A DNA stretch of 64,000 nt from Dehalococcoidia bacterium. GTDB lineage: Bacteria > Chloroflexota > Dehalococcoidia > Bin125. The notes beneath the pieces were generated by a model. It ran no database searches, was not told where the DNA came from, and saw nothing but the letters and a program-made list of their open reading frames with translations. A program made the translations under genes and the position numbers. Position 1 is the first letter of the stretch; each line of letters opens with the position of its first letter. Location of the stretch: positions 1,156,537 to 1,220,536 of the forward strand of contig CBDHGH010000003.1 of the NCBI GenBank assembly GCA_965263065.1. The letters are read 5' to 3'. Shown one piece after another: positions 10,777 through 37,185 of this stretch.

Positions 10777-11544
10777 TCAGACGTCGTGGGCGTTGCGGAC
10801 GAGGATGCGCCCGGGCCCGCCGTCGAGGGGGATCGTCTTGACAGCCAGGGCGACGCGGTTGCCCGCGTCGAGGGCGTCCCAGTAGGTCGCGAGCACGTGG
10901 CCGACGCCGCCCGCGAGCGGCAGCCAGAGCGGATCGCCGCGGAACGGCGGCAGCGGATCGCCGTCGCCGGCGTAGGTCGTGATGCCCAGGCCCAGGCCGG
11001 GCGGCGGCAGCGCCGGGCGCGTCGTGATGCGGTCCGACTGCGCGGCGTCGGCGTCGGCGGCGCGCAGGATGCTGATCGCCATCCGTGGGGACACGCCGTG
11101 CATGTGGCCGCGCAGGTCGAGCAGACCGCTGATGCGGGGCGTGTAGTTGGGGGCGTCGTCCTCGCGCTCGCGGGTGGCGAGGGCGTCCTCGAAGCTCCCG
11201 CCCGCGGCCAGCCCCTCGACGATCGTGCGCGACTGGTCGCCGTTGGAGACGACGTAGAGGTCGGGCAGTTCGAGCATCGCCTCGTAGATCACGTTGGTCG
11301 GATCGCTGAGCTTGCCGGGGTCGACGGCCTCGGTGCGCATCGACGAACCGTCCACGACGAAGCGGCGGTTCCGGCTGTTCTCGCTGCGCCCCATGATCCA
11401 GTAGACCTGCAGCCAGGCCGCCCCGTCGGCGCTGCGACCGATGACGAGGCCGCGGCCCGGATAGGGGTTCTCGCGCAGGTGGCGCTGCAGATTGCCCTCG
11501 GCCACGGCGGGCAGGCCCGCGTCGGGGATGGGCATGGCGGACAT
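10777..11544 (-). CDS. purO: PurO-like IMP cyclohydrolase (archaeal type), translationally coupled to purH
   Basis: 255 aa, N-terminus ...ENPYPGRGLVIGRSADGAAWLQVYWIMGRSENSRNRRF. Its ATG overlaps the upstream AICARFT-only purH stop (TGATG). The context (purH lacking its cyclohydrolase domain) supports the call; sequence memory of PurO is weak. Confidence 0.55.
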   Translation of the reverse strand: MSAMPIPDAGLPAVAEGNLQRHLRENPYPGRGLVIGRSADGAAWLQVYWIMGRSENSRNRRFVVDGSSMRTEAVDPGKLSDPTNVIYEAMLELPDLYVVSNGDQSRTIVEGLAAGGSFEDALATREREDDAPNYTPRISGLLDLRGHMHGVSPRMAISILRAADADAAQSDRITTRPALPPPGLGLGITTYAGDGDPLPPFRGDPLWLPLAGGVGHVLATYWDALDAGNRVALAVKTIPLDGGPGRILVRNAHDV

Positions 11545-14270: not shown

Positions 14271-15167
14271 CTAGTCGGCGCCGCGCAGGCGCGGATCCAG
14301 GAGGTCGCGCAGGACGTCCCCCAGCAGATTGAAGGATAGCACCGTCAGCACGATGGCCATCCCCGGGAAGATCGCCGGCCAGGGGTGCGTGGCCAGGTAG
14401 AGCTGTCCCCCCTTGAGCATGGTCCCCCAGGAGGGGTCGGGGGGCTGCGTCCCCAGTCCCAGGAAGGAGAGGGCCGCCTCGATGATGATCGCGAAGCCGA
14501 TGCCCAGCGACATCTGCACCAGCACGGGCGCCAGCACGTTCGGCGCGATGTGCCGGAAGAGGATGCGCGGGGTGGCCGCCCCCATCGCCTCGGCCGCCAT
14601 GACGTAATCGTTCTCCTTGGCCGACAGGGTGCTGCCGCGCACGATGCGGGCGTACAGGGGAACGAACACGACGCCGATCGCGATCATCACGTTGACCGAG
14701 CTGGAGCCCAACACGGCGATCATGATCAGGGCCAGCAGCAAGGCCGGGTAGGCGTACAGCGCGTCCATCACGCGCATCAGCCCCTCGTCCTTGCGGCCGC
14801 CGACGTAGCCCGCGACCAGGCCGTAGGGCAGCCCGATGCCCACCCCGATGCCCACGGAGATCAGCCCCACGACCAGGGCGGTCCGCGAAGCGTGGACGAG
14901 GCGGGAGTAGGTATCGCGGCCCAGCTTGTCGGCGCCGAACCAATGCTCCCCCGTCGGCGGGCTGAGGCCCGCGTCGCCGTCGAGCGCGATGGGATCATGG
15001 GTGGCGACGACCCCCGGGATGATCGCCGCGACGAGGACCACCAGCACGATCGCCAGGCTCACGACCCCCGCGGGCCGCTGACGGAAGCGCCGCGCGAACT
15101 CCCGCTCGCGCGCCCCACGGCGCTCGCGGAGTTGCAGGGGCGGGGCGCCGGTCTGCCGGTCACTCAT
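14271..15167 (-). CDS. ABC transporter permease (DppC/OppC-like)
   Basis: Six predicted TM segments, the EAA-like loop (AAEAMGAATPRILFRHIAPN) and an N-terminal cytoplasmic extension. It overlaps the upstream permease by 8 nt. Confidence 0.85.
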   Translation of the reverse strand: MSDRQTGAPPLQLRERRGAREREFARRFRQRPAGVVSLAIVLVVLVAAIIPGVVATHDPIALDGDAGLSPPTGEHWFGADKLGRDTYSRLVHASRTALVVGLISVGIGVGIGLPYGLVAGYVGGRKDEGLMRVMDALYAYPALLLALIMIAVLGSSSVNVMIAIGVVFVPLYARIVRGSTLSAKENDYVMAAEAMGAATPRILFRHIAPNVLAPVLVQMSLGIGFAIIIEAALSFLGLGTQPPDPSWGTMLKGGQLYLATHPWPAIFPGMAIVLTVLSFNLLGDVLRDLLDPRLRGAD

Positions 15168-16104
15168 AGCGGATCCGCGGATCCAGGAACGCGTAGGACA
15201 CGTCGACGGCCAGATTCGTCAGGGCGACGGCGCCGGCCAGCATGACCCCGATCGCCTGCACCGTCTGGAGCTCACGGTTGAAGACGGAGTCGACCAAGAG
15301 CTTGCCGACGCCCGGCAAGTTGAACACGCTCTCGATGATGACGAAGCCGCCCACGATCGTGGAGACCTGGATCCCCATCACCGTGACGACGGGGATGAGC
15401 GCGTTGCGGAACGCGTGCCGCACGATCACGCTCCGCTCGCGCAGGCCCTTGGCGTAGGCGGTGCGCACGTAGTCCTGCCGCAGCACGTCCACCAGGGCGG
15501 CGCGGGTCTGCCGCGCCAGGATCGCCGCCTGGGTCACACCGACCGCGAAGGCCGGCAAGGCGACCGAGCGCAAGTTCTGGACCGGGTCGTCGAGGAAGCT
15601 GGTGAAGCCGACGGCCGGGAACCAGCGGAATTGCACCGAGAAGAGCAGAATCAGCATCAGCGCCAGCCAGAAGTTCGGGATGGCGGCCCCCAGCACGGCG
15701 AGCGCGGTGCCCCCGTAGTCGAGGATGGTGTTCGGCCGCGCCCCGGCGAGCAGCCCCAGCGGGATCCCGATCGCGGTCGCGATCAGCATCGCCAGGATGC
15801 CCAGTTCGATACTGACCTCCAGGCGCTTGGCGATCAGGTCGCTGACTTCCTTGCCCGCGCGCGCACTCCGGCCGAGGTCACCCTGCAGCGCGTCCCCCAC
15901 CCAGTCGAAGTAGCGCACGACGACCGGCCGGTTGAGTCCCAGTTGCTCCCGCAGCGCCTCCAGGTGCCGGGTATCCGCCTCCATGCCCAGCATGGCGATG
16001 GCCAAGTCGCCGGGCAGCAGCGCCACGGCGAAGAACGTGATCGCCGAGATCAGGATGAGGACCGGGATCGTGACCAGGAACCGCCGGGCGATGTAGGTGG
16101 TCAT
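15160..16104 (-). CDS. ABC transporter permease (DppB/OppB-like)
   Basis: MTTYIARRFLVTIPVLILIS..., the RTAYAKGLRERSVIVRHAFRNAL EAA motif, 314 aa. Confidence 0.85.
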   Translation of the reverse strand: MTTYIARRFLVTIPVLILISAITFFAVALLPGDLAIAMLGMEADTRHLEALREQLGLNRPVVVRYFDWVGDALQGDLGRSARAGKEVSDLIAKRLEVSIELGILAMLIATAIGIPLGLLAGARPNTILDYGGTALAVLGAAIPNFWLALMLILLFSVQFRWFPAVGFTSFLDDPVQNLRSVALPAFAVGVTQAAILARQTRAALVDVLRQDYVRTAYAKGLRERSVIVRHAFRNALIPVVTVMGIQVSTIVGGFVIIESVFNLPGVGKLLVDSVFNRELQTVQAIGVMLAGAVALTNLAVDVSYAFLDPRIRYE

Positions 16105-16109
16105 CGTGT

Positions 16110-16360
16110 GCCCTCATGGGGGGCCTCGCTCCCTGACCCCCTCTCCCTGAGGGAGGGGGGGGGGGTGAGGGGGCCTCGGCGGGCGCGGGCCCTCCCCCTA
16201 GCCCTCTCCCAGAGGGAGAGGGAACCGGAGCCCCCTCTCCCTCTGGACGATGGAGAGGGGGAACGTGAAGCGTGCGCCATCACCCCTCCTCCTCCGGTCC
16301 CCCCTCTCCATTGCTCCGCAATGGAGAGGGGGTTAGGGGGTGAGGTCGGGGGGGCCGGCG
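16110..16360. repeat. cluster of GC-rich palindromic (REP-like) hairpin repeats, stem core CCCCTCTCC/GGAGAGGGG
   Basis: Examples: CCCTCTCCC-AGA-GGGAGAGGG (perfect), CCCCCTCTCC-(11 nt)-GGAGAGGGGG, CCCCCTCTCCATTGC-TCC-GCAATGGAGAGGGGG (15-bp stem), and an 11-G run. The cluster sits between the substrate-binding-protein and DppB genes. Confidence 0.75.
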
Positions 16361-16362
16361 GG

Positions 16363-18706
16363 CTACGTCGCCCAGCGGACGTCGTCCTGCCCGAAGTGGA
16401 ACTTGACGTCGCCGAAGAGCTCGAACTGGAGACCGGGGTCATGAGCGACGACGGCTTTGTAGTGGACGGTCTTCACCTGGTAGGAGCGTGATTCGGCGAC
16501 GCGGTTGAGTTCGCGCATCGCCTCGATCCTCGCCTGCAGTTCGAACGTCTCCTCCACCTTGACGAGGGCAGCCTGCACCTCCGGATCTTTGTCGGGCGGC
16601 AGCATGTGGTCATGGGGCCCGCCCTCGCCGACGTTCCAGAAGACCTGCTGCCAGATGTCGCCTCGCATCGACATGCCACCCATGAAGCCCCCGACTTCCT
16701 CCGCATACCACTCCGACCAGAAGGCGGGGTGGGGCTTCGCATCGATGTTCATCGTGATGCCGACCTGGGCGAGCGCGGCCTGGACGAACAGCGACTGGTC
16801 GATGTAGAGCGGGTCGTCGGCTTTGACATTCATGTTGAACTCGAGGCCGTCCTCGAAGCCGCCGGCGGCAAGGTGCATTTGCACGACCTCCGGGTCGAAC
16901 TCCCAGAAGCGCTCGTTCGGGTCGTGATAGATGACCGACGGACCATACCAGCCCCACAGCGCCGGCGTGTGGTAGCCGCCGAAGACCGTGTCGTTCAGTT
17001 CGGTGCGATCGAAGCCGGCGTTGAACGCATGGCGGGCGTGCGGATTGTTCCAGGGCTCGATGTTCGTGTTCATATTATAGAAGCCGGTGGTGTTCGATGG
17101 CTGGATGATGAGCTCGTACCCCGCATCCCTGATGCGGTCATGGTCCTCTTCCGCCGGGAAGCGGATGGCGTCGTAATCGCCGGCGAGGAGAGCGTTGGTG
17201 GCCCCAAACGTGGCATCCTCGCCCGCGTTGAAGGTGACGCCCTCGATGTGGGGCGCGTTGGGCTTCCAGTAGTTGGGGTTGGCGTCCATGACGAAGGGGC
17301 CGTCGAGGGACTCCTCGACGAAGACGTGGGCCCCGGTGCCAACGGGCGTGTTGCGGTTATTCAGCTCCGTGAAGTCGTCGAAGGAGTTCGGCGAGAGGAT
17401 CAGGCCGGCGCGGTCCCCGAGGATCCAGAGCAGCGGCGAGAACGGCCGATCCATCCGGAACGCCGCCGTCATCGTGTCGGTCTCTTCGACGCTCCCCACG
17501 GCGGCGAGGTCGCCCTTGATGGTCGAGGCCTCCAGCGTCTTGCCGCGCTCGATCCAGAGCCGCACCGCCTCCGCGGTGAGCGGCAGGCCGTCGTGGAACT
17601 GCACGTTCTCGCGGATGCTGAAGATCACGTTGAGCGGGTCCGGGGTCTCCCAGCTCTGGGCCAGGCTGCGGTCCGGCTGGGGCGTCAGGGACGCGTCGTA
17701 GGACACGAGGGGGTCGTAGAGACACCAGAGCATCGCGTGATCGTTGCCGTTCGTCCCGGTCCCCGCCTCGGTCCCGCCGAAGTTCGGCGTTGGGATGCGG
17801 ACACGGGGGCCCCGGAGGGCGGCGGCCGCCGTGGCCTGCGCCGCGGAGGCGGACTCGGCGGCCGTGGCGGCGGTGTCGGCGGCCTCCTGGGCCGCGTCGG
17901 CGGCCTCTTCGGCGGCGGCGACGGCGGCGGCGGCGGTCTCGGCCGCGGCTTCGGCGGCCTCTTCGGCGGCGGCGACGGCCGCGGCGGCGGTCGCGGCGGC
18001 AGTGGATGCGGCGGCTTCCGCGGCTGCGGACGCCTCCCCGGCTGCGGCCGCGGCCGCCGCCGCCGCCTCGGCAGCGTTGTCGATGGCGGCCTGGGCGGCC
18101 GCCGCGGTGGCCGTGCCGGCTTCGACGGCCGCGGCGACGTCGCGGGCGGCCTGGGCAGCGGCCTCGGCGGCCTGCGCGGCGGCGTCCGCGACGGCCGCGG
18201 CCGCGGCGTCACCGGCCGCGGATGCGGCGTCGGCAGCCTGGGCGGCAGCCGCAGCCGCGGCTTCCGCGGCGGCGGCCGCGTTGGCGGCGTCCTCCGACTC
18301 AGCGGCCTCGGCGGCCAAGGCGGCGGCCGCATCGGCGGCGCTGGCCGCCTGCGAGGCGGCGGCGGAGGCCTCGCCGGCGGCGTCTGCCGCGTCGGCCGCG
18401 GCGGCGGAGGCCTCGCCTGCGGCGTCTGCCGCGTCGGCCGCGGCGTCTGCCGCGCCGGCCGCGGTGGCGGCCGCGGCCTCGGAGTCGGCGGCGCGCGCCT
18501 CCCCGGCGGCGACCGCCGCGGCGGCGGCCTCTTCCGCGGCCGCGGCGGCCCGTTCGGCCGCCACGGCGCCGGCGTCGGGCCCGTCGTCGTCGCCGCAGCC
18601 GACCAGGGCCAGCCCGGCGGCCCCAACGCCCGCTTTGGCGCTGGCTCCCAACATGGTGCGGCGTGAGATCTTCCGCTGTCGCAGGGCGGTCCAGTAGTTG
18701 CTCATG
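16363..18706 (-). CDS. ABC transporter substrate-binding lipoprotein (family 5, peptide/nickel/opine type) with Tat signal and ~290-aa poly-Ala/Glu/Asp linker
   Basis: MSNYWTALRQRKISRRTMLGASAKAGVGAAGLALVGCGDDD has the Tat RR motif and a lipobox. Roughly 290 residues of A/E/D-rich low complexity follow, then the family-5 SBP domain. The ATG at 18706 is confirmed in sequence. Confidence 0.85.
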
Positions 18707-18897
18707 GTCGATTCCTTTCTGTGGAACGCGGGTGCCGCCCACCTGGGGACGGGCTCGCGAAACCAGAGCGGGCGCATTGTGACGCAAGGGGAGGGGGCAG
18801 TCAAGGTTTTGGGAAAGTTCTTTTTTACACTGTGGATAATCGGGATGCAGGGAACCTGCCCCCCTCTGTATCTCTGCATCAGGGTGTGGAGAGGGGG

Positions 18898-20085
18898 TCA
18901 GGGGGTGAGGTCGAGCGCCGCCGACAGCGCCGCGTCGTCGGTGGGCAGCGCCTCCACGACCCCCACCGCGTCGATCAGCACGTACGTCACGCTGGCCCCC
19001 GCCCCGAACAGCGCCGCGGCGTCGCGCTCCCAGACCAGGCTCGTGTACGCCGCGACCGTCGCCAGCGGCGCCGAGGGTGTGCGGGCAATCGCCGCCTCGA
19101 TCCCGGCCGCCGCCGCCGACTCCACGGCCCGGCGCAGTTCGTCGTCGCACTGCGTGCAGTTCGGGCGGGCGAAGACCAGCAGCACGGCCCGCCCGCGCTG
19201 GTCCGAGAGGCGCCAGCGCCGCCCCGGGTCGTCCGCGCTCGCCAGCACGCTGTCGTCCGCGCTCGCCAGCACGAGGTCCGGCGCGAGCGACCCCACCCGC
19301 ACCCCAATGCGCACCGCGTCGCCGGCCGCCGCCAGCAGCGCCGCCGGCAGCGCCTTCGGGCCCGGCGCCAGCAGCGGCCCCACCGGCTCGGCCAGCGTCG
19401 CGACCAGATCGGCCATCGCCTCCTCGAAGCTCGCGTCGGGCGCCTGGCCGCGGAAGATCGTGCGGATCACGCCGTCGGGCCCCAGGAACATCGTGTGCGG
19501 CGGCCCCAGCGTCCCGCCGATGCCGTAGCGCCGCGTGACGGCGCCGTCGAAGTCCATGGGCAGCGCGAAGTTGATCCCGAACTCCGCCGCGAAGTCCCCC
19601 GCCGGCGACCGCGCCTCCTCGATGTTGACCCCCACGACGATCAGCCCGGCCTCGCGGTACTGCTCCTGCAGCCGGATCAAGACCGGCATCTCGCGGCGGC
19701 AGGGGGCGCACCACGACGCCCAGAAGTTCAGCACCACCGGGTGCCCCGCCCAGTCCGACAGGCGGAAGCGCCCGCCGTCGAGGGTCTCCAGTTCGAAGTC
19801 GGGCGCGAGCCGGCCGATGGCGTCGTCAGGCGGCAGGGCCGCGTCGGGCAGGTCCGGGGGCAGCAGGTACGCCGGACGCGCCGCCGGCCCCAGGTCGCCG
19901 CCGCGGTCGGGCCCGGCGCCGTCGCCCAGCGTCAGCCAGAGCGGGATCGCGACCGCCAGCAGCACCAGCAGCGCCACGACCAGCGTGCGCGCGCCGTGGT
20001 ACTCGCGCGGGCGGGTGGGATGCTCGTCGGGGAAGCCGGCGCCGGCGCCGTCCGCCGCTGCGCTGTCCGAGTCGTCGCTGCTCAT
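18898..20085 (-). CDS. membrane-anchored TlpA/ResA-like thiol-disulfide oxidoreductase with a second degenerate redoxin-like domain
   Basis: An N-terminal TM helix, then LNFWASWCAPCRREMP (CxxC thioredoxin fold), then a second half carrying FARPNCTQCDDE. The ATG at 20085 follows GGGAG. Confidence 0.75.
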   Translation of the reverse strand: MSSDDSDSAAADGAGAGFPDEHPTRPREYHGARTLVVALLVLLAVAIPLWLTLGDGAGPDRGGDLGPAARPAYLLPPDLPDAALPPDDAIGRLAPDFELETLDGGRFRLSDWAGHPVVLNFWASWCAPCRREMPVLIRLQEQYREAGLIVVGVNIEEARSPAGDFAAEFGINFALPMDFDGAVTRRYGIGGTLGPPHTMFLGPDGVIRTIFRGQAPDASFEEAMADLVATLAEPVGPLLAPGPKALPAALLAAAGDAVRIGVRVGSLAPDLVLASADDSVLASADDPGRRWRLSDQRGRAVLLVFARPNCTQCDDELRRAVESAAAAGIEAAIARTPSAPLATVAAYTSLVWERDAAALFGAGASVTYVLIDAVGVVEALPTDDAALSAALDLTP

Positions 20086-30920: not shown

Positions 30921-31044
30921 GACGACTCCTCGCGGGCATCCGGTCGGCGCCTCGGGCGCGACCGTTTGCCGGCAGTTTAGCCCAGCGCCCGTGCGGCGGC
31001 GCGCCTGGGTTGCGGCCGCGTGCGGATGGTCGGGCGCCCCGACG

Positions 31045-31938
31045 CTAGCGCACGTGGCGCAGGCGCGGATCGAGGGCGTCGCGGAGCCAATCGCCCATCA
31101 GGTTGCCGGTCAGCGAGATCGTCAGCAGGGCCAGGCCCGGCAGCCAGATGGGCCACCAGGCGACGTTCATGAAGTCCCGGCCCTCCGAGATCATCACCCC
31201 CCACGACGGCGTGCCCGGCGGCGCGCCCACGGTCAGGAAGCTCAGCGCCGCCTCGGCCAGGATCACCAGCGCCACCTCCAGCGTCATGATGATCACGACG
31301 GTGTTGACGACGTTCGGGAACAGGTGCCGGCGCATGATCCAGACGGGGCCTGCCCCGGTCGCCCGCGATGCCGTGACGAAGTCGCGCTCCTTGAGCGTGA
31401 GCACGTCGGCGCGCACCAGCCGCGCGTACGCGGGCCAGGTCCAGATCAGCAGGATGATGATCACGTTGCGCAGGCTGGGCCCGACCAGGGCCGCCAGCAG
31501 CACCGCGAACAGGATGCCCGGCATGGCCAGCTGCACGTCGACCAGGCGCATCAGCAGTTGGCCGGTGAGGCCGCCCGCCCAGCCCGAGATCAGCCCCACC
31601 AGCGTCCCGAGCAGCGCCGCGCCCGGCACCACGGCCCCGACGACGATCAAGGAGATCCGCGCGCCGTACAGCAGCCGGCTGAAGATGTCCCGCCCCACTT
31701 GGTCGGTGCCCAGGAAGTAGTCCCAGCTGCCCCCGGCGAAGACGGGCGGCTCCAAGCGCCCGCCCAGGTTGATGAACTCCGGGTCGTGCGGCGCCAGCCA
31801 GTTCGCCCCCAGGCCCGCGACGAGCAGCGCCAGCGCGATCGCGCCGGGCACGGACAGCCCCAGCCAGCGCCGCCAGCGGATGCCGCGCCGCCGCTGCGCC
31901 AGGGGCGTCGCCGTCTGGCCCGCCGCTTGGCCCGCCAT
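31045..31938 (-). CDS. ABC transporter permease (DppC-like), copy B
   Basis: 297 aa, paralogue of 21395..22300 (~90 % nucleotide identity). Confidence 0.85.
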   Translation of the reverse strand: MAGQAAGQTATPLAQRRRGIRWRRWLGLSVPGAIALALLVAGLGANWLAPHDPEFINLGGRLEPPVFAGGSWDYFLGTDQVGRDIFSRLLYGARISLIVVGAVVPGAALLGTLVGLISGWAGGLTGQLLMRLVDVQLAMPGILFAVLLAALVGPSLRNVIIILLIWTWPAYARLVRADVLTLKERDFVTASRATGAGPVWIMRRHLFPNVVNTVVIIMTLEVALVILAEAALSFLTVGAPPGTPSWGVMISEGRDFMNVAWWPIWLPGLALLTISLTGNLMGDWLRDALDPRLRHVR

Positions 31939-32876
31939 CAGGCGGCCCCCGCCCGGATGCGCGGGTCGATCAGCCGGTACGACACGTCGACCAGCAGGTT
32001 CACGACCGCGATCGAGGCCGCCAGCACGATGATCGAGGCCTGCACCATCGGGAAGTCGTTCTTGAAGATCGAGTCGACGATCAGCCGGCCGACCCCGGGC
32101 CAGGCGAACACCATCTCGATGATCACCGAGCCGCCGATCAACCGGCCCAGCGAGAGGCCCAGCATCGTCACGACCGGCAGCAGCGCGTGCCGCACGGCGT
32201 GCCGCCCGATGACCACCCGCTCGCTCAGCCCCTTGGCCCGCGCCGTGCGAATGAAGTCGGTGTCCATGACCTCGATCATCCCCGAGCGGGTGAGCCGCAT
32301 GATCGCGACCAATTCAAACAGGCCGAGTGCGATCGCGGGCAGGATCAACGAGCGGAAGCCCGCGTCTTCACCGCCGGTCGGGAACCAGCCCAACTGGACG
32401 GCGAAGAAGAAGATCATCATCAGGCCCAGCCAGAAGCTCGGCGTGGCCTGCCCGATCACCGCCACGAAGCGCGCCAGCCAGTCGATGACCGTGCCCCGCT
32501 TCAACGCCGCGAGGATGCCCAGCGGGACCGCCAGCGCGAGCGCGAACACCACGCCCGCCACCCCCAGCTTGAGCGTGCTCACCGCCCGGTCGCCGATCGC
32601 GGCGAGCGCCGGCGTGCCCCCGCCCAGCCACGAACTCCCGAAGTCGCCTTGCGCCAACTTCCCCAGGAAGATGGCGTATTGGACGTGGAGCGGGTGGTGC
32701 AGCCCGAGATCCTCCCGCAGGCGCTCGACGGCTTCGGGCCGTCGCTGGTCGGGCGCCAGCAGGGTCGCCTCGGGATTGCCCACGAGGCGCGAAACGAAGA
32801 AGACGGTCGTCGCGACGATGAAGACGACGAAGAACGCCTGGACCAGCCGGATCGCGAAGTAGCTCCAGAACTGCAT
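31938..32876 (-). CDS. ABC transporter permease (DppB-like), copy B
   Basis: MQFWSYFAIRLVQAFF... The start is the internal ATG; the ORF extension to 32930 starts at TTG. ATGA overlap with the downstream permease. Confidence 0.85.
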   Translation of the reverse strand: MQFWSYFAIRLVQAFFVVFIVATTVFFVSRLVGNPEATLLAPDQRRPEAVERLREDLGLHHPLHVQYAIFLGKLAQGDFGSSWLGGGTPALAAIGDRAVSTLKLGVAGVVFALALAVPLGILAALKRGTVIDWLARFVAVIGQATPSFWLGLMMIFFFAVQLGWFPTGGEDAGFRSLILPAIALGLFELVAIMRLTRSGMIEVMDTDFIRTARAKGLSERVVIGRHAVRHALLPVVTMLGLSLGRLIGGSVIIEMVFAWPGVGRLIVDSIFKNDFPMVQASIIVLAASIAVVNLLVDVSYRLIDPRIRAGAA

Positions 32877-32934
32877 CAGTCCCCCTGCGGTGCGGGCGCT
32901 GGTGGTCCGGCGGCAGTGTAGCGGAGGCAACCAT

Positions 32935-33210
32935 GCCGGCGGGCCGCCGGAATCTGACCCCCGAACCGAACCCCCTCTCCGTTGCAGAGCATAGGAGAGG
33001 GAATCGGATCCCCTCTCCCCAGGGGAGAGGGTGAGGGTGAGGGGGACCCGGCGCCCGCGCCCCTGTCCCCCTCTCCATCCTTCTGGATGGAGAGGGAATC
33101 GGATCCCCTCTCCCCCTTGGGGGAGAGGGTTCGGGTGAGGGGGTCTCCGCGACCGCGGACCCTCACCCTAGCCCTCTCCCAGGGGGAGAGGGGACCGGAG
33201 GTTCCGGCGC
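32935..33210. repeat. second cluster of CCCCTCTCC/GGAGAGGGG palindromic hairpin repeats (REP-like)
   Basis: At least six hairpins, for example CCCCTCTCCCC-A-GGGGAGAGGG, CCCTCTCCATCC-TTCT-GGATGGAGAGGG, CCCCTCTCCCCC-TT-GGGGGAGAGGG and GGGTGAGGG...CCCTCACCC. The position (SBP to DppB intergenic) matches 16110..16360. Confidence 0.75.
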
Positions 33211-33211
33211 C

Positions 33212-35446
33212 TTAGGTGGCCTTGCGCCGCTGGATGGCGTAGGCCGAGCCGCCCCACGCGAAGCCGGTGCTCCCGCCCTTGGGCCAGTTGACGTCCGCCG
33301 GGGTTAGCACCGCGTCCGGCGCCTCGACGATGAAGATGAGCCACGCTTGGCGCGCGTGCTCCAGCATCAGTTCCGCGGTCATCGCGCTGCGCCGTGCGGG
33401 ATCGAGCTCGGCGCGCTGTGCGAGGTACAGCTCGTGCAGGGCCGGATCCATAACCCCCTCGCCGCCGAGCTTCGTGAAGTAGGATTCGGGCCCGACGCAG
33501 CAATCCCACATCGATCCGATGTCGCGGACGATGTTGGCCCACATCCAATAGAGGCCCACCGGGCGGTCGCGGCCGCCGACGAGGTAGGCGTCGGAGAAGT
33601 ACTCGGAGACGAGGGCCGCCTCCGGCTGCGTGCGGATGCCGATCGCGGCCAGGTCCTGGGCCACGGCCGGCACCATGTCCGCCATGGCCTGGCCGCCCCA
33701 GTCGGTCGTCCAGTACAGCGGAACCTCGAAGCCGTCCGCGTAGCCGGCCTCCGCCATCAACTGCCGCGCCAGTTCGGGGTCGTAGTGGTACTCGACTTCC
33801 GCCCGCTGCTCCGGGGTCGGGTAGCCGTACACGCCGGCGAACGTGAACAGAGGATAGTGGCCCTGGCCGAGCAGGAGGTTGTCGATGATGGCTTGGCGGT
33901 TGATCGCGTGGTTCGCGGCCCGGCGGACGCGGAAGTCGAGGAACGGGTTCGGGCTGCCGTCCGGCATCGTCTGGGGGTACAGGTTGGGATAGAGCACCTG
34001 GATGGCCGCCCCGTTGATGCCGGGTTGGTATTGCACCGTGAAGTCGGGGTCGTCCAGGTACGGCTGCACGTTGTTGGGGCCCAGGTCCGGCACCACGTCG
34101 ATCTCCCCGGCCTCGAGGCCGGCCAGCTGCGACTGGATCTCGGGCCGCACCACGACCCGCTGGTGCTTGTGGTGGGCGTAGCGCGACACGACGACGGGAT
34201 GGTCGACCGGGAGGAAGTGCTCCTCGAAGCGCTCGAAGACGAAGTCCGTGTCGTCTTCGTGGCTGACGAAGCGGAAGGGGCCAGTACCCATCGGTGAGGT
34301 GTCCATCGCGAGGTCGCCGCGCGCCTCCGTGTCCGCCTGCGACATGATGACGACCTCGCCGGTCCCGGCCAGGTTGACGACGAAGAAGCCCGCATCGGGC
34401 AACGGCAACTCGATCGACCAGGTGCGGTCGTCCACGGCCTCGTTGCGGACCCAGTTCGCGGAGCTCCGGCCGAAGTTCGAGGGGGTCCAGCCGCTGGGGT
34501 GATCGGTCGTCTCGCCGCCCTGGTGGTAGGCGGCCTTCCCGGCCATGCGGTCGTAGCTGAACACGATGTCGTGGGCGGTGAGGATCGAGCCGTCGTGGAA
34601 CGGCGCCGGCACCACCGACGCCACGATCGACGTTTGGTCGACCCACTCCGGCGCGGCGAGATGCGGGATCGCCACGGCGGCGGCGGGCTCCCATTCCATG
34701 GTCGGACTGAAGACGGCGCCGTGCGAGTACTGGTTCGTCTTGCTGCCGGTCCGCATCTGGTCCAGCCCCCCCGCGTCGGAGGGGACCACCGGGATGATCG
34801 TGGCGTCCAGGTCGACCTGGTCGAGCGGCCAGGGCACGGAGAAGTCCTCGGTGTCGCCCAGGACGGCGACGGCGGCGACGGCTTCGACGGCCTCGCGGGC
34901 TGCGTCGGCGGCCTCCTCGGCGGCCGTGGCGGCGACCGCCGCGGCCTCAGCGGCGGCCTGGGCCGCGGCGGCGGCGGCGGCCGTGTCCTCGGCGCCCACC
35001 TCCCGCGCGGCGGCGGCCGCGGCCCCGGCGGCATCGGCGGCCGCCTGCGCGACGGCCGCGGCGCCCGCGTCCCCCGCGGCCCGGGCCGCGTCGGCGGCGT
35101 CGGCCGCGGCGTCGGCGGCGGCCTGAGCGGCGGCGGCCGCGGCCGCGGCGTCATCGGAGCTGGCGGCTTCGGCCGCCATCGCGGAGGCGGCTTCGGCGGC
35201 TTCGGCGGCGCGGCCCGCGGCATCGGCGGCGTCGCTCGCGGCCTCCGCCGCAGCCGCGGCGTCGCCCGCGGCGGCGTCGATCGCCGACGTATCGACCGCG
35301 GCCGGCGCGGCGTCATCGTCGTCGTCGCCGCAGCCGACCAAGGCGAGGCCGGCGGCCCCAACCCCAGCCTTCGCGCTGGCTCCCAACATGGTGCGGCGTG
35401 AGATCTTCCGCTGTCGCAGGGTCGTCCAATAGTTGCGGTCGCTCAT
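33212..35446 (-). CDS. ABC transporter substrate-binding lipoprotein (family 5) with Tat signal and ~250-aa poly-Ala/acidic linker, paralogue 3
   Basis: The signal peptide is identical to paralogue 2 (MSDRNYWTTLRQRKISRRTML...LVGCGDDDDD). An Ala/Asp/Glu-rich linker of ~250 aa follows, then an SBP domain closely related to paralogue 2. The ATG at 35446 is confirmed. Confidence 0.85.
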   Translation of the reverse strand: MSDRNYWTTLRQRKISRRTMLGASAKAGVGAAGLALVGCGDDDDDAAPAAVDTSAIDAAAGDAAAAAEAASDAADAAGRAAEAAEAASAMAAEAASSDDAAAAAAAAQAAADAAADAADAARAAGDAGAAAVAQAAADAAGAAAAAAREVGAEDTAAAAAAAQAAAEAAAVAATAAEEAADAAREAVEAVAAVAVLGDTEDFSVPWPLDQVDLDATIIPVVPSDAGGLDQMRTGSKTNQYSHGAVFSPTMEWEPAAAVAIPHLAAPEWVDQTSIVASVVPAPFHDGSILTAHDIVFSYDRMAGKAAYHQGGETTDHPSGWTPSNFGRSSANWVRNEAVDDRTWSIELPLPDAGFFVVNLAGTGEVVIMSQADTEARGDLAMDTSPMGTGPFRFVSHEDDTDFVFERFEEHFLPVDHPVVVSRYAHHKHQRVVVRPEIQSQLAGLEAGEIDVVPDLGPNNVQPYLDDPDFTVQYQPGINGAAIQVLYPNLYPQTMPDGSPNPFLDFRVRRAANHAINRQAIIDNLLLGQGHYPLFTFAGVYGYPTPEQRAEVEYHYDPELARQLMAEAGYADGFEVPLYWTTDWGGQAMADMVPAVAQDLAAIGIRTQPEAALVSEYFSDAYLVGGRDRPVGLYWMWANIVRDIGSMWDCCVGPESYFTKLGGEGVMDPALHELYLAQRAELDPARRSAMTAELMLEHARQAWLIFIVEAPDAVLTPADVNWPKGGSTGFAWGGSAYAIQRRKAT

Positions 35447-35600
35447 CACATGTTCCCTTCTGGTCCCCGGCTGTCCCGTTGTGGGATCACTCGGTGCGTG
35501 AGCACGCACAGTATGGCAGGTTAAGCGAGTACCCGTCACTCTCGTTATGTCACATAGAAAAGAACTATTGATGCTTCCATGGAATTTATCGGTGCCGGGC
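35447..35600 (-). promoter_or_regulatory. conserved structured 5' leader / promoter of SBP paralogue 3 (copy of 26728..26880)
   Basis: Near-identical to the SBP2 leader with a few substitutions. It carries the same AT-richer box and the GAAGGGAA Shine-Dalgarno. Confidence 0.6.
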
Positions 35601-35870
35601 GCCGGAACCTCACCCCCTAACCTCCTCTCCATTGCCGAGCAACGGAGCGGCGGGATCGGAGGGGAGAGGGGGCTAGGCGGTGGCGCCGACCCCGGACTCT
35701 CGCCCCCATTGCCCTTCCGGTCCCCCCTCTCCAGCGCTTCAGCTGGAGAGGGGGCTAGGGGGTGAGGTTCCCCCGCCGGTCCCCCCTCTCCATCGCTTCC
35801 GATGGAGAGCCCCAGGCGCGCGACCGCACCCCGTCGTATCGGAAGTCAGGGGGTGAGGTCGGGCCGTGCG
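35590..35870. repeat. third cluster of CCCCTCTCC/GGAGAGGGG palindromic hairpin repeats
   Basis: Examples: CCCCCCTCTCCAGCGCTTCAGCTGGAGAGGGGG (13-bp stem) and CCCCCCTCTCCATCG-CTTCC-GATGGAGAG. It lies between the SBP3 promoter and the 3' end of cysN. Confidence 0.7.
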
Positions 35871-35874
35871 GCGG

Positions 35875-37185
35875 TTACGAGGGTTCGGCCAGCACCATGC
35901 CCGCCGCGACGGTGTTCGACGTCGCCTCGTCGATCAGGATGAAGCTGCCTGTCGTGCGGTTGCGCGCGTAGGCGTCGGGGAACAGCGCCGTCGTGCAGCG
36001 CAGGCGCACGCGCCCGATGTCGTTCAGCGACAGCGCCTCCACGCCGGGCTCCGGCCGGAGCGAGTTGACGTCCAGCCGGTACGTGATCGCGTCCGCGACC
36101 ACGCGCGCCGTCCGCGTCGTGTGCTTGATGCCCAGGCGCCGCCCCGGCGCGAGCGTGCCCGCCTCCGACATCCAGCAGACCATCGCGTCGAAGGTCTGCC
36201 GCGCGGCCGGCCGCGTGGCGCTGTGGCAGATCAGGTCGCCGCGCGAGACGTCCAGGGCGTCGCGCAGGGTCACCGTCACCGACAGCGGCGGTCGCGCCGA
36301 CTCGACCGCCACGCCGCCCACCGCGATCTCGCCAATCGTGGTTTCCCGCCCCGAGGGCAGCACCGTCACCGGGTCGCCGGGGCGCAGGATCCCGCCGGCC
36401 ACGACGCCCGCGTAGCCGCGGTAGTCGGACCCCACGGGCCGGATGACGTATTGCACCGGCAGGCGGCCGTCGTCGAGGTTGTGATCCCAGGCCACCTCCA
36501 CCGACTCCAGGTAGTCGAGCAGGGCGGGGCCGTCGTACCAGGGCATCGCCGCGGACCGATCGACGACGTTGTCACCGCGCAGCGCCGAGATCGGGATCGC
36601 CCCCACGTCGATCGTGCGCCCGTGCGTCGCGCGCAGCTTGACGGCGAACGCCGCGAAGTCGGCCCGGATGCGGTCGAAGACGGCCTGCTCGTAGCCGGCC
36701 AGGTCCATCTTGTTCACGCACAGCACCAGGTGCGGGATGCCCAGCAGCGTCGCCAGCGAGGCGTGGCGCCGGGTTTGCTCGAGCAGCCCGTGGCGCGCGT
36801 CGACCAGGATCAGCGCCAGGTCCGCCGTCGATGCGCCGGTCACCATGTTGCGCGTGTACTGCACGTGGCCGGGCGTGTCGGCGAGGATGAACTTGCGGCG
36901 CGGCGTCTGGAAGTAGCGGTACGCCACGTCGATCGTGATGCCCTGTTCGCGCTCGGCGCGCAGCCCGTCCGTGAGCAGCGCCAGATCGACGTAGGCGTCG
37001 CCGCGCGCCTTGCTGGTCCGCTCGATCGCCTGCAGCTGGTCGTCGAACGTCTGCTTGGCGTCGTACAGCAGCCGCCCGATCAGCGTGCTCTTGCCGTCGT
37101 CGACCGACCCGGCCGTCGAGAAGCGCAGCAGGTCCGACGCGCCGTAGCGGCCGGCCGCGCCGTCCGTCGCCGCCTCGCTCGTCAT
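35875..37185 (-). CDS. cysN: sulfate adenylyltransferase subunit 1 (GTPase), no fused APS-kinase domain
   Basis: The GTPase motifs GSVDDGKST, DTPGH and NKMD are present, followed by EF-Tu-like domains II/III. 436 aa. Confidence 0.85.
   Translation of the reverse strand: MTSEAATDGAAGRYGASDLLRFSTAGSVDDGKSTLIGRLLYDAKQTFDDQLQAIERTSKARGDAYVDLALLTDGLRAEREQGITIDVAYRYFQTPRRKFILADTPGHVQYTRNMVTGASTADLALILVDARHGLLEQTRRHASLATLLGIPHLVLCVNKMDLAGYEQAVFDRIRADFAAFAVKLRATHGRTIDVGAIPISALRGDNVVDRSAAMPWYDGPALLDYLESVEVAWDHNLDDGRLPVQYVIRPVGSDYRGYAGVVAGGILRPGDPVTVLPSGRETTIGEIAVGGVAVESARPPLSVTVTLRDALDVSRGDLICHSATRPAARQTFDAMVCWMSEAGTLAPGRRLGIKHTTRTARVVADAITYRLDVNSLRPEPGVEALSLNDIGRVRLRCTTALFPDAYARNRTTGSFILIDEATSNTVAAGMVLAEPS

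Follow-up and report, generated by a model that had tools for sequence, protein, structure and literature searches.

What are the G+C-rich hairpins that recur beside ATP-binding cassette (ABC) transporter genes in an uncultured Chloroflexota bacterium, and what could have brought them there? The question arises from a 64-kb stretch of contig CBDHGH010000003.1 (hereafter "the window"; host DNA of 72% G+C), in which four loci, all within 20 kb of each other, carry imperfect copies of a hairpin repeat: cluster 1 (16137-16345), a remnant (18868-18910), cluster 2 (32971-33193), and cluster 3 (35608-35858). An earlier note on this DNA had described them as a family akin to the repetitive extragenic palindromic (REP) elements of E. 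coli, placed exactly at junctions between substrate-binding protein (SBP) and permease genes. Our analysis points to a different identity: judged by their sequence, the window clusters are mosaics of the pan-bacterial BoxC/PIT/TMECO repeat. In many phyla, inverted pairs of this repeat unit bracket YcjD-like DUF559 genes.

We evaluated the hairpins against shuffled sequence. Their two halves, CCCTCTCC and GGAGAGGG, form very stable structures that shuffles never recreated. We counted 30 copies of the heptamer CCTCTCC in the window, whereas dinucleotide-preserving shuffles gave 13.8 +/- 3.7; 23 of the 30 copies lie inside the four repeat loci; for GGGTGAGG, the corresponding figures are 11 copies against 3.4 expected, with 10 of 11 inside the loci. 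These counts bear out the three clusters and the remnant at the positions that the note had claimed. All three clusters contain perfectly paired stems of 9-15 bp, the longest of them, in the unit at 16299-16345, matching the 15 bp that had been put forward as a maximum. When folded in mRNA sense, i.e., as the minus strand since all flanking genes lie on that strand, single hairpins reach -21 to -31 kcal/mol (z-scores of -3.7 to -5.4) and the inverted pair at 33100-33198 reaches -83.8 kcal/mol (z -8.4); the decayed unit at 18868-18910 folds no better than shuffles. Within cluster 2, the hairpin at 33067-33096 and the unit after it repeat the arrangement seen at 32971-33045, forming a ~95-nt imperfect tandem duplication in which block and linker columns are all identical between copies (mean column identity 87%). 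Tandem Repeats Finder missed this duplication, which direct alignment reveals. A small plus-strand open reading frame (ORF) at 32982-33215, proposed earlier to be repeat-derived, is indeed so, as its codon-position G+C contrast is weak (third-position G+C of 0.76 vs ~0.95 in real genes). Rfam at its gathering threshold gave no match in the clusters; the only match in the 64-kb window was a cobalamin riboswitch (RF00174, 49061-49143, minus strand) with 32.6 bits against a gathering score of 31.5.

A full unit consists of a C-block (CCCTCTCC), a complementary G-block (GGAGAGGG) and, 2-3 nt further on, a third block (GGGTGAGG). Units occur alone or as inverted pairs, two of which lie in the window (16137-16222 and 33105-33193). 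The variant GGGTGAGGG, which the note had read as an alternative stem, is instead this third block, at its fixed distance of 2-3 nt after the hairpin. Elements of this kind were reportedly described in E. coli as BoxC and PIT by Bachellier and colleagues in the 1990s and by Hoyne and Maher in 2000. They are the same element as TMECO, an intrastrand triplex motif of the form CCCTCNCCC N3-6 GGGNGAGGG N3 GGGNGAGGG (Holder et al. 2015, PMC4666352). The window holds four strict matches to the TMECO pattern and one with a single mismatch (Table 1), compared to 0 matches in 50 shuffles, and it is because four units match the published pattern exactly that we assign the repeats to BoxC/TMECO. G-block and third block together form mirror repeats fitting purine-motif triads (G.G-C, A.A-T, T.A-T), e.g., GGAGAGGGGG tta GGGGGTGAGG at 16323-16345 and GGGAGAGGG ttc GGGTGAGGG at 33121-33141; with E. 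coli oligonucleotides, the intrastrand triplex has been formed in vitro (PMC4666352).

The likeness to E. coli BoxC goes beyond the three blocks and their spacing. The BoxC pair between hrpB and mrcB shares the layout of window 33105-33193, i.e., a unit, a short spacer, an inverted unit, and then the flank GGGGACCG, and in both organisms the repeats are intergenic, multi-copy, and located at rearrangement-prone sites. There are differences as well: the window carries arrays of 4-7 units where E. coli has singles or pairs, and several window units have a longer register, with 10-11-nt blocks and a variable inner stem that is perfectly palindromic and up to 15 bp long; the published TMECO pattern (loop 3-6) leaves this register out. 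The hosts also differ, the one here being an uncultured Chloroflexota bacterium of 72% G+C, and published E. coli BoxC work names no associated gene, whereas the units analyzed here are tied to DUF559.

The same unit is widespread. In a scan that covered one genome per GTDB species, with counts that are lower bounds, three-block units were found in at least 15 phyla among the matches listed. These included Chloroflexota, Planctomycetota, Bacteroidota, Ignavibacteriota, Pseudomonadota, Cyanobacteriota, Armatimonadota, Gemmatimonadota, Acidobacteriota, Myxococcota, Nitrospirota, Bipolaricaulota, and Methylomirabilota, as well as a Kiritimatiellia metagenome-assembled genome (MAG), a Desulfamplus MAG, and a bacterium of the Candidate Phyla Radiation (CPR). 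A scan of IMG/VR for the hairpin core returned, among the matches listed, contigs of 31-74% G+C, many copies having the same third block. With at least 15 phyla represented and units at non-homologous sites in relatives, the repeats make up a genuine family, as the note had maintained, rather than a local duplication. The identification as REP elements did not hold: the units are of the three-block BoxC/PIT/TMECO type without a GTAG-type head, and a lineage-specific REP family is not what their sequences indicate. Membership in the REP (RAYT) class was considered separately and rejected, the repeat-flanked gene being DUF559/MTES_1575 and not an IS200/IS605-like transposase (the window was not scanned systematically for Y1 transposases).

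The link to DUF559 became apparent from long ORFs that overlap units. According to Pfam, 4 of 10 such ORFs include an in-frame DUF559 domain (PF04480) with a unit on each side, in genes for methionyl-tRNA synthetase (MetRS), two leucyl-tRNA synthetases (LeuRS), and a Type ISP restriction enzyme. When all retrieved DNA was searched with a profile, DUF559 turned up in 8 of 119 repeat-seeded loci, and also in the relative L126 (loci are numbered with the prefix L throughout). All eight genes of the repeat-seeded loci, and likewise every DUF559 gene for which both flanks could be read, are bracketed by an inverted unit pair, in one of two layouts with third blocks pointing outward or inward. For the reciprocal sample, we took the 80 best metagenomic matches to a 4-sequence alignment of repeat-bracketed DUF559 genes: strict units were present ≤200 bp upstream in 40 of 78 loci and ≤200 bp downstream in 42 of 76, while the DNA >400 bp from the DUF559 genes yielded 15 strict units in 113 kb. 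Most of the 25 other loci had degenerate or variant three-block hairpins, above all in AT-rich DNA. Bracketing spans E. coli ycjD, Chloroflexota, Bacteroidota, and Planctomycetota. No connection between DUF559 or YcjD and BoxC was found in the searchable literature (mostly without subscription journals); Holder et al. report no mobility genes near the repeats and do not mention ycjD (PMC4666352).

The bracketed genes encode ~115 aa, have their stop codon in the linker of the 3' unit, and are 38-51% identical at the protein level across phyla. These proteins match PF04480 with E values of 1e-32 to 1e-34 and keep the motif E..D..H......D, in which E52, D54, and D65 are invariant and H58 is found in 9 of 10. 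Profile matches to PDB 3HRL (1e-34) and to the homing endonuclease I-Bth0305I (3R3P, 1e-4) indicate that the bracketed product is a putative YcjD-like endonuclease of Vsr/EDxHD type.

Two further observations concern these elements. The four in-frame unit-DUF559-unit elements are located at L137 2110-2660, L147 6612-7085, L227 6922-7428, and L214 4530-5027, i.e., in the MetRS gene, in the two LeuRS genes (inserted at different places), and in the Type ISP restriction-modification gene. Their hosts are unrelated (L137 is a betaproteobacterial MAG and L147 a Cytophagales MAG), and the repeat parts of the elements are translated as PSP..ERG..GGEV linkers. At AT-rich DUF559 loci (L283, L288, L297, L299, and L301), the flanks hold a hairpin and third block with altered blocks, for example CCCCGACCC/GGGTTGGGG, CCCCTTCTCC/GGAGAAGGGG..GGGGGTTGAGG, or CCTCTCTC/GAGAGAGA..GAGAGTGAGG. 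The latter pattern hints that nuclease and repeat may co-diverge in AT-rich DNA.

Chloroflexota contigs connect these elements to the window. Close homologues (91-99% identical) of the L126 DUF559 were found in Chloroflexota contigs of 72% G+C, where the repeat-embedded gene directly follows an SBP_bac_5 gene (L330-L332 and L335) or comes after a Peripla_BP_6 gene (L333). In L336, the operon reads SBP_bac_5-TauD-[unit-DUF559-unit]-permease, with the element directly before the first permease gene. The mosaic of these elements is like that of the window, with a long-loop hairpin, linker, unit, ORF, and inverted unit in succession, and the stop codon of Chloroflexota DUF559 is the linker of the 3' unit (..GEPSP, then stop). 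Specifically, the elements of L330 and L336 align colinearly on both flanks with window 33055-33215; the unit at 33105-33143 corresponds to the 5' flank, and a 16-nt spacer replaces the ~350-nt ORF. This window pair is the ORF-less counterpart of the DUF559 element of relatives. We also considered the L126/L336 SBP-TauD-DUF559-permease operon as an orthologue of window operon 1 and rejected it as merely analogous (SBPs 22% and permeases 37% identical).

In E. coli K-12, ycjD, the only annotated DUF559 gene looked at, ends within a decayed unit; next come, in this order, an incomplete second copy of the ycjD 3' end and TMECO #9. Of 5426 complete E. coli genomes, 3378 carry the gene. Across 60 evenly spaced genomes, BoxC-type matches had a median of 18 when ycjD was present (range 11-27, n = 37) and of 3 when it was absent (range 1-14, n = 23), a difference with p = 1.7e-10 in a Mann-Whitney test that ignores phylogeny. 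The ycjD-negative strain SE15 had only 2 TMECO-type matches. Like SE15, strain BEN2908 presumably belongs to phylogroup B2; its ycjD-less fabI locus (L334) has no repeat left at the junction. Near fabI, where ycjD and TMECO #9 are located in K-12, this strain has a TetR gene and resistance-nodulation-division (RND) efflux genes, presumably the eef operon.

Next, we compared the window with its relatives. Cluster 1 is identical, i.e., without strain variation, across three other assemblies of the same species (L001-L003), including the unit at 16299-16345. The more distant L125 (CysN 96% identical) has the gene order of the window, with an additional PhyH gene ending at an inverted unit pair that is absent from the window. 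Its SBP|permease junction carries 3 units compared to 6 hairpins at the orthologous window junction, and unlike window cluster 3, no cluster is present at cysN|SBP. When window 31009-35868 is aligned to L125 11318-17259, the flanks are 92-95% identical and the ABC cassette only 74-83%; identity declines at cluster 3 at one end and at the L125 unit pair at the other. Further away, the ABC operon is absent altogether from L126 (CysN 88%), and other genes occupy this place in L127 (CysN 80%). From these alignments, exchange of the ABC-transporter cassette appears to have taken place between borders marked by repeats. The repeats thus delimit gene blocks that were exchanged or inserted, in agreement with the raised variability around E. 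coli copies (Holder et al., PMC4666352). The same cysN|SBP spacer of L125 contains a run of ~17 G upstream of the SBP gene (11470-11495).

Where the repeats sit relative to genes was evaluated in the window and across the 119 repeat-seeded genome loci, the latter with heuristic gene calls. In the window, clusters 1 and 2 do lie between an SBP_bac_5 gene (16363-18705 and 33212-35446, respectively) and a permease gene (15160-16104 and 31938-32876), as the note had it; cluster 3 is instead located between the 3' end of a cysN-like gene and an AT-rich stretch, the presumed SBP2 promoter region, and the remnant runs into the 3' end of an AhpC/TSA-like gene, on the upstream side of the SBP1 promoter. 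No such repeats are present in a third SBP_bac_5 operon of the window (21395-~26730). Across the 119 loci, repeat clusters were observed in 55 tandem gaps (~52-55 expected), 25 convergent gaps (~15.5 expected), and 6 divergent gaps (15.5-18.5 expected), a departure from expectation with chi-square p between 0.003 and 0.0006, and the median distance to the upstream stop codon is 49 nt. Unit orientation relative to the upstream gene showed no significant bias (81 against 62, p = 0.13). Proteins encoded upstream of repeats in other bacteria were SBPs in only 4 of 108 cases, with 228 Pfam families among the 108. The family thus favors gene 3' ends and shuns promoter-only gaps, a preference shared with REPs, while the SBP/permease link is confined to the two local clusters and absent family-wide. 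Units can also lie within conserved coding sequence, as in the M19 membrane dipeptidase gene of L220, where a single in-frame unit without ORF (2576-2608) adds 12 aa (TSPPTPSPTGEG) to the conserved domain.

Taken together, we consider it fairly probable that the BoxC/TMECO mosaics of the window derive from a DUF559 element but lack its ORF, or are sites that such an element does not occupy. For the broader proposition, i.e., that BoxC/TMECO repeats serve YcjD-type DUF559 endonucleases as non-autonomous partners or as homing sites in a pan-bacterial system comparable to REPIN-RAYT but with a Vsr/EDxHD-type nuclease, belief and doubt are evenly balanced. Under such a scheme, the DUF559 nuclease would cut units, and breaks would be repaired from other copies by homing or a gene-conversion-like process, which may spread and maintain the units. 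These would survive only where an insertion is tolerated, i.e., after stop codons, in operon spacers, and occasionally in frame inside genes, and would coincide with breakpoints of gene-cassette exchange between strains, here of ABC-transporter genes. As a by-product, minus-strand transcripts would carry hairpins of -21 to -84 kcal/mol right after SBP coding regions, and these could shield the SBP mRNA segment from 3' exonucleases; a stabilizing role of this kind is plausible.

Several points weigh against this explanation. The window itself contains no DUF559 gene within its 64 kb, and action of the nuclease on the repeats is something we infer. A lone PD-(D/E)XK-type nuclease is unable to integrate DNA itself, which leaves the arrival of units at new sites unaccounted for, and no target-site duplication was seen at five bracketed elements (L147, L166, L214, L224, and L227), at which inverted terminal units are present. 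The relationship could also run in the other direction, with DUF559 homing into pre-existing repeat pairs without aiding their spread, and this would fit the bracketing equally well. As to sampling, both collection scans give arbitrary samples with counts that are lower bounds, the DUF559-seeded sample is limited to the YcjD-like clade, the positional statistics depend on heuristic gene calls, and the E. coli contrast between ycjD and copy number is confounded by phylogeny. A structure-driven origin, considered below, likewise counts on this side.

One rival to our preferred DUF559 explanation is that the hairpins are REP-like regulatory elements kept at SBP|permease junctions, where they would block 3'-5' exonucleases and raise SBP over permease expression as in malE-malF. 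The location of clusters 1 and 2, the occupied orthologous junction in L125, the extreme stability of the hairpins in mRNA sense, and the family-wide preference for gene 3' ends are all in line with this. We nevertheless judge it unlikely: SBP genes are rare upstream of the repeats family-wide, the third SBP operon of the window does without them, and units are also found inside coding regions and bracketing a nuclease gene. Because the L125 junction differs in content and the cysN|SBP cluster is missing there, the repeats do not behave as a conserved regulatory site. For E. coli PIT elements, moreover, an earlier study found no promoter or terminator activity, as far as it is cited in PMC4666352.

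A similarly improbable alternative was raised by Holder et al., namely that the elements are driven by structure: the G-rich strand would fold into a purine-motif triplex (H-DNA) that stalls replication and provokes rearrangements without any dedicated enzyme. The blocks obey purine-motif rules including A.A-T and T.A-T triads, the triplex forms in vitro (PMC4666352), and rearrangement breakpoints coincide with units both here and in E. coli. Yet in-vivo dimethyl sulfate (DMS) footprinting detected no triplex (PMC4666352), and structure alone fails to explain why near-identical sequence, flanks included, is encountered in DNA of 31-74% G+C and in hosts as far apart as E. coli and Chloroflexota. 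Nor does it account for the precise DUF559 bracketing or for the different copy numbers of E. coli with and without ycjD.

The remaining alternatives fare worse. Intrinsic (Rho-independent) terminators parting SBP from permease transcription would account for G+C-rich hairpins directly after stop codons, but are very improbable given that no U-tract follows any hairpin, that a terminator scan finds none in the clusters, that units come in both orientations and in arrays of 4-7, and that the earlier study, again as cited in PMC4666352, reported no terminator activity for the E. coli elements. A local duplication or a compositional artefact of a 72%-G+C genome, despite four loci lying within 20 kb and the ~95-nt tandem duplication in cluster 2, is refuted by the absence of the pattern from shuffles, by units at other loci in relatives and across phyla, and by the two operons, which are not recent duplicates because their SBP genes are only ~28% identical outside a shared signal peptide.

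Table 1. Coordinates of repeat units in the window and of the genes around them (flanking genes placed by Pfam).
Feature	Position	Strand	Description
First permease gene, operon 1 (BPD_transp_1)	15160-16104	-	
Three-block unit (TM)	16137-16173	+	C-block CCCCCTCTCCC, loop tga, degenerate G-block, third block GGGTGAGGGGG; TMECO with one mismatch; left half of inverted pair
Spacer of cluster 1 inverted pair	16174-16189		
Three-block unit	16190-16222	-	CCCTCCCCC tag CCCTCTCCC aga GGGAGAGGG; strict TMECO match; right half of inverted pair
C-block/G-block hairpin with long loop, no third block	16231-16261	.	Fold -24.1 kcal/mol, z -3.7
Long-register unit	16299-16345	+	CCCCCCTCTCC attgc-tcc-gcaat GGAGAGGGGG tta GGGGGTGAGG; 15-bp stem, 100% complementary; -31.3 kcal/mol, z -5.4
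SBP_bac_5 lipoprotein gene 1 (SBP1, 780 aa)	16363-18705	-	Repeats on both sides
Sigma-70-like promoter, SBP1	18804-18776	-	
Decayed unit	18868-18910	+	C-block eroded; G-block 18888-18897 and third block 18901-18910 intact
First permease gene, operon 2 (BPD_transp_1)	31938-32876	-	
Hairpin without third block, then linker aatcggat	32971-33001	.	Fold -21.2 kcal/mol, z -3.9
Three-block unit	33010-33045	+	CCCCTCTCCCC a GGGGAGAGGG tga GGGTGAGGGGG; strict TMECO match at 33011-33043
Hairpin without third block	33067-33096	.	Fold -25.7 kcal/mol
Three-block unit	33105-33143	+	Left half of inverted pair, third blocks inward; strict TMECO match at 33106-33141
16-nt spacer tctccgcgaccgcgga	33144-33159	.	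Where relatives hold a DUF559 ORF of ~350 nt (alignment)
Three-block unit	33160-33193	-	CCCTCACCC tag CCCTCTCCC aggg GGGAGAGGGG, then accgga; strict TMECO match at 33160-33192; right half of inverted pair
SBP_bac_5 gene 2 (SBP2)	33212-35446	-	Clusters 2 and 3 on its two sides
Decayed composite	35608-35682	-	CCTCACCCCC taa CCTCCTCTCC ... GGAGcGGcGG, then GGGGAGAGGGGG cta GGcGGTG
Long-register unit	35722-35767	+	CCCCCCTCTCC agc-gcttca-gct GGAGAGGGGG cta GGGGGTGAGG; fold -30.6 kcal/mol, z -4.1
Interrupted long-register unit	35781-35858	+	~39 nt (35810-35848) between GGAGAG and third block GGGGGTGAGG; by comparison with units 16299 and 35722
cysN-like gene	35875-37185	-	

Within cluster 3 (Table 1), the outer arms of the decayed composite form a 20-nt inverted repeat that is 85% complementary, and a 39-nt insertion splits the last, otherwise typical long-register unit between G-block and third block. 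The repeats also reach into neighboring genes: the decayed repeat, with its third block and linker, provides the AhpC/TSA-like gene with its last codons (..DLTP) and TGA stop (18898-18912, minus strand), an ending of the same repeat-supplied kind as those of E. coli YcjD (..RRSPSP, then stop) and the Chloroflexota DUF559 genes. Apart from the repeats, the SBP1 and SBP2 genes share a module of ~115 nt at ~92% identity (18590-18705 and 35330-35446, both minus strand), which encodes a Tat-like signal peptide and lipobox (NYWT.LRQRKISRRTMLGASAKAGVGAAGLALVGCG). Because the promoters of the two genes differ and the remaining protein is only ~28% identical, this module suggests spread by gene conversion. 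Between the lipobox and the SBP_bac_5 domain, residues ~200-300 of SBP1 form a long Ala/Glu-rich low-complexity stretch (e.g., AAEAAAAAAAAAGEASAA and AVAAAEEAAEAAAETAAAAVAAAEE), and it is because of this stretch that the SBPs are ~780 aa long.

How does the putative DUF559 system relate to known ones? On REP sequences, bacterial interspersed mosaic elements (BIMEs), and REPIN-RAYT systems there is reportedly work by Higgins and Gilson, by Nunvar (2010), and by Bertels and Rainey (2011). Like REP/BIME, the repeats studied here are short extragenic palindromes that form inverted doublets and mosaics after genes and inside operons, ABC-transporter operons included. As with REPIN-RAYT, there is a repeat-flanked associated gene, usually single copy, and repeat numbers may likewise fall where the gene is absent (here medians of 18 vs 3 in E. 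coli, phylogeny ignored). The BoxC-type sequence differs from REP, however, in lacking a GTAG-type 5' motif and having a third block, and the gene encodes a Vsr/EDxHD-type PD-(D/E)XK nuclease where RAYT is an IS200/IS605-like tyrosine (HUH) transposase.

A second comparison is with Vsr-like/EDxHD homing endonucleases such as I-Bth0305I (Taylor et al. 2011, PMC3239194; Dassa et al. 2009, PMC2677866). The bracketed DUF559 shares their nuclease fold and motif, as judged by the profile match to 3R3P, and its gene lies amid a symmetric site that also exists empty, with some copies in frame in essential genes. It differs in having neither a surrounding intron or intein nor a NUMOD/HTH (helix-turn-helix) DNA-binding extension, and in that its "site" is a dispersed repeat with tens to hundreds of copies. 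Finally, Rickettsia palindromic elements and other miniature inverted-repeat transposable elements (MITEs) are said to insert in frame into genes (Ogata and colleagues, 2000). BoxC-type units are likewise translated inside conserved proteins, as in the M19 dipeptidase, and whole unit-DUF559-unit inserts are present in MetRS and LeuRS; in contrast to MITEs, no signature of terminal repeats plus target-site duplication was seen for them, and unlike the Rickettsia elements, their distribution is pan-bacterial rather than limited to one genus.

Overall, the window repeats are ordinary in themselves, extending the known BoxC/PIT/TMECO family to an uncultured Chloroflexota bacterium. For genome annotation, they imply that small ORFs with PLSP..GERG..GVRG-type peptides are repeat-derived, that some gene ends, e.g., of the AhpC-like gene and YcjD, are supplied by repeats, and that long "fusion" ORFs in aminoacyl-tRNA synthetase genes may hold an inserted nuclease element. 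More broadly, the BoxC family has been without an associated gene or mechanism for ~30 years, and DUF559 bracketing supplies a candidate. If correct, the DUF559 explanation would provide a function for E. coli YcjD and an enzymatic cause of genome instability at BoxC repeats, and would account for repeats inserted in frame into essential genes (e.g., MetRS and LeuRS), whether or not the nuclease comes with them. There would also be a concrete reason for the repeats to lie at the edges of exchanged cassettes, as with the ABC-transporter genes of the window. Both what spreads BoxC and what YcjD does would thereby become experimentally addressable in E. coli K-12.

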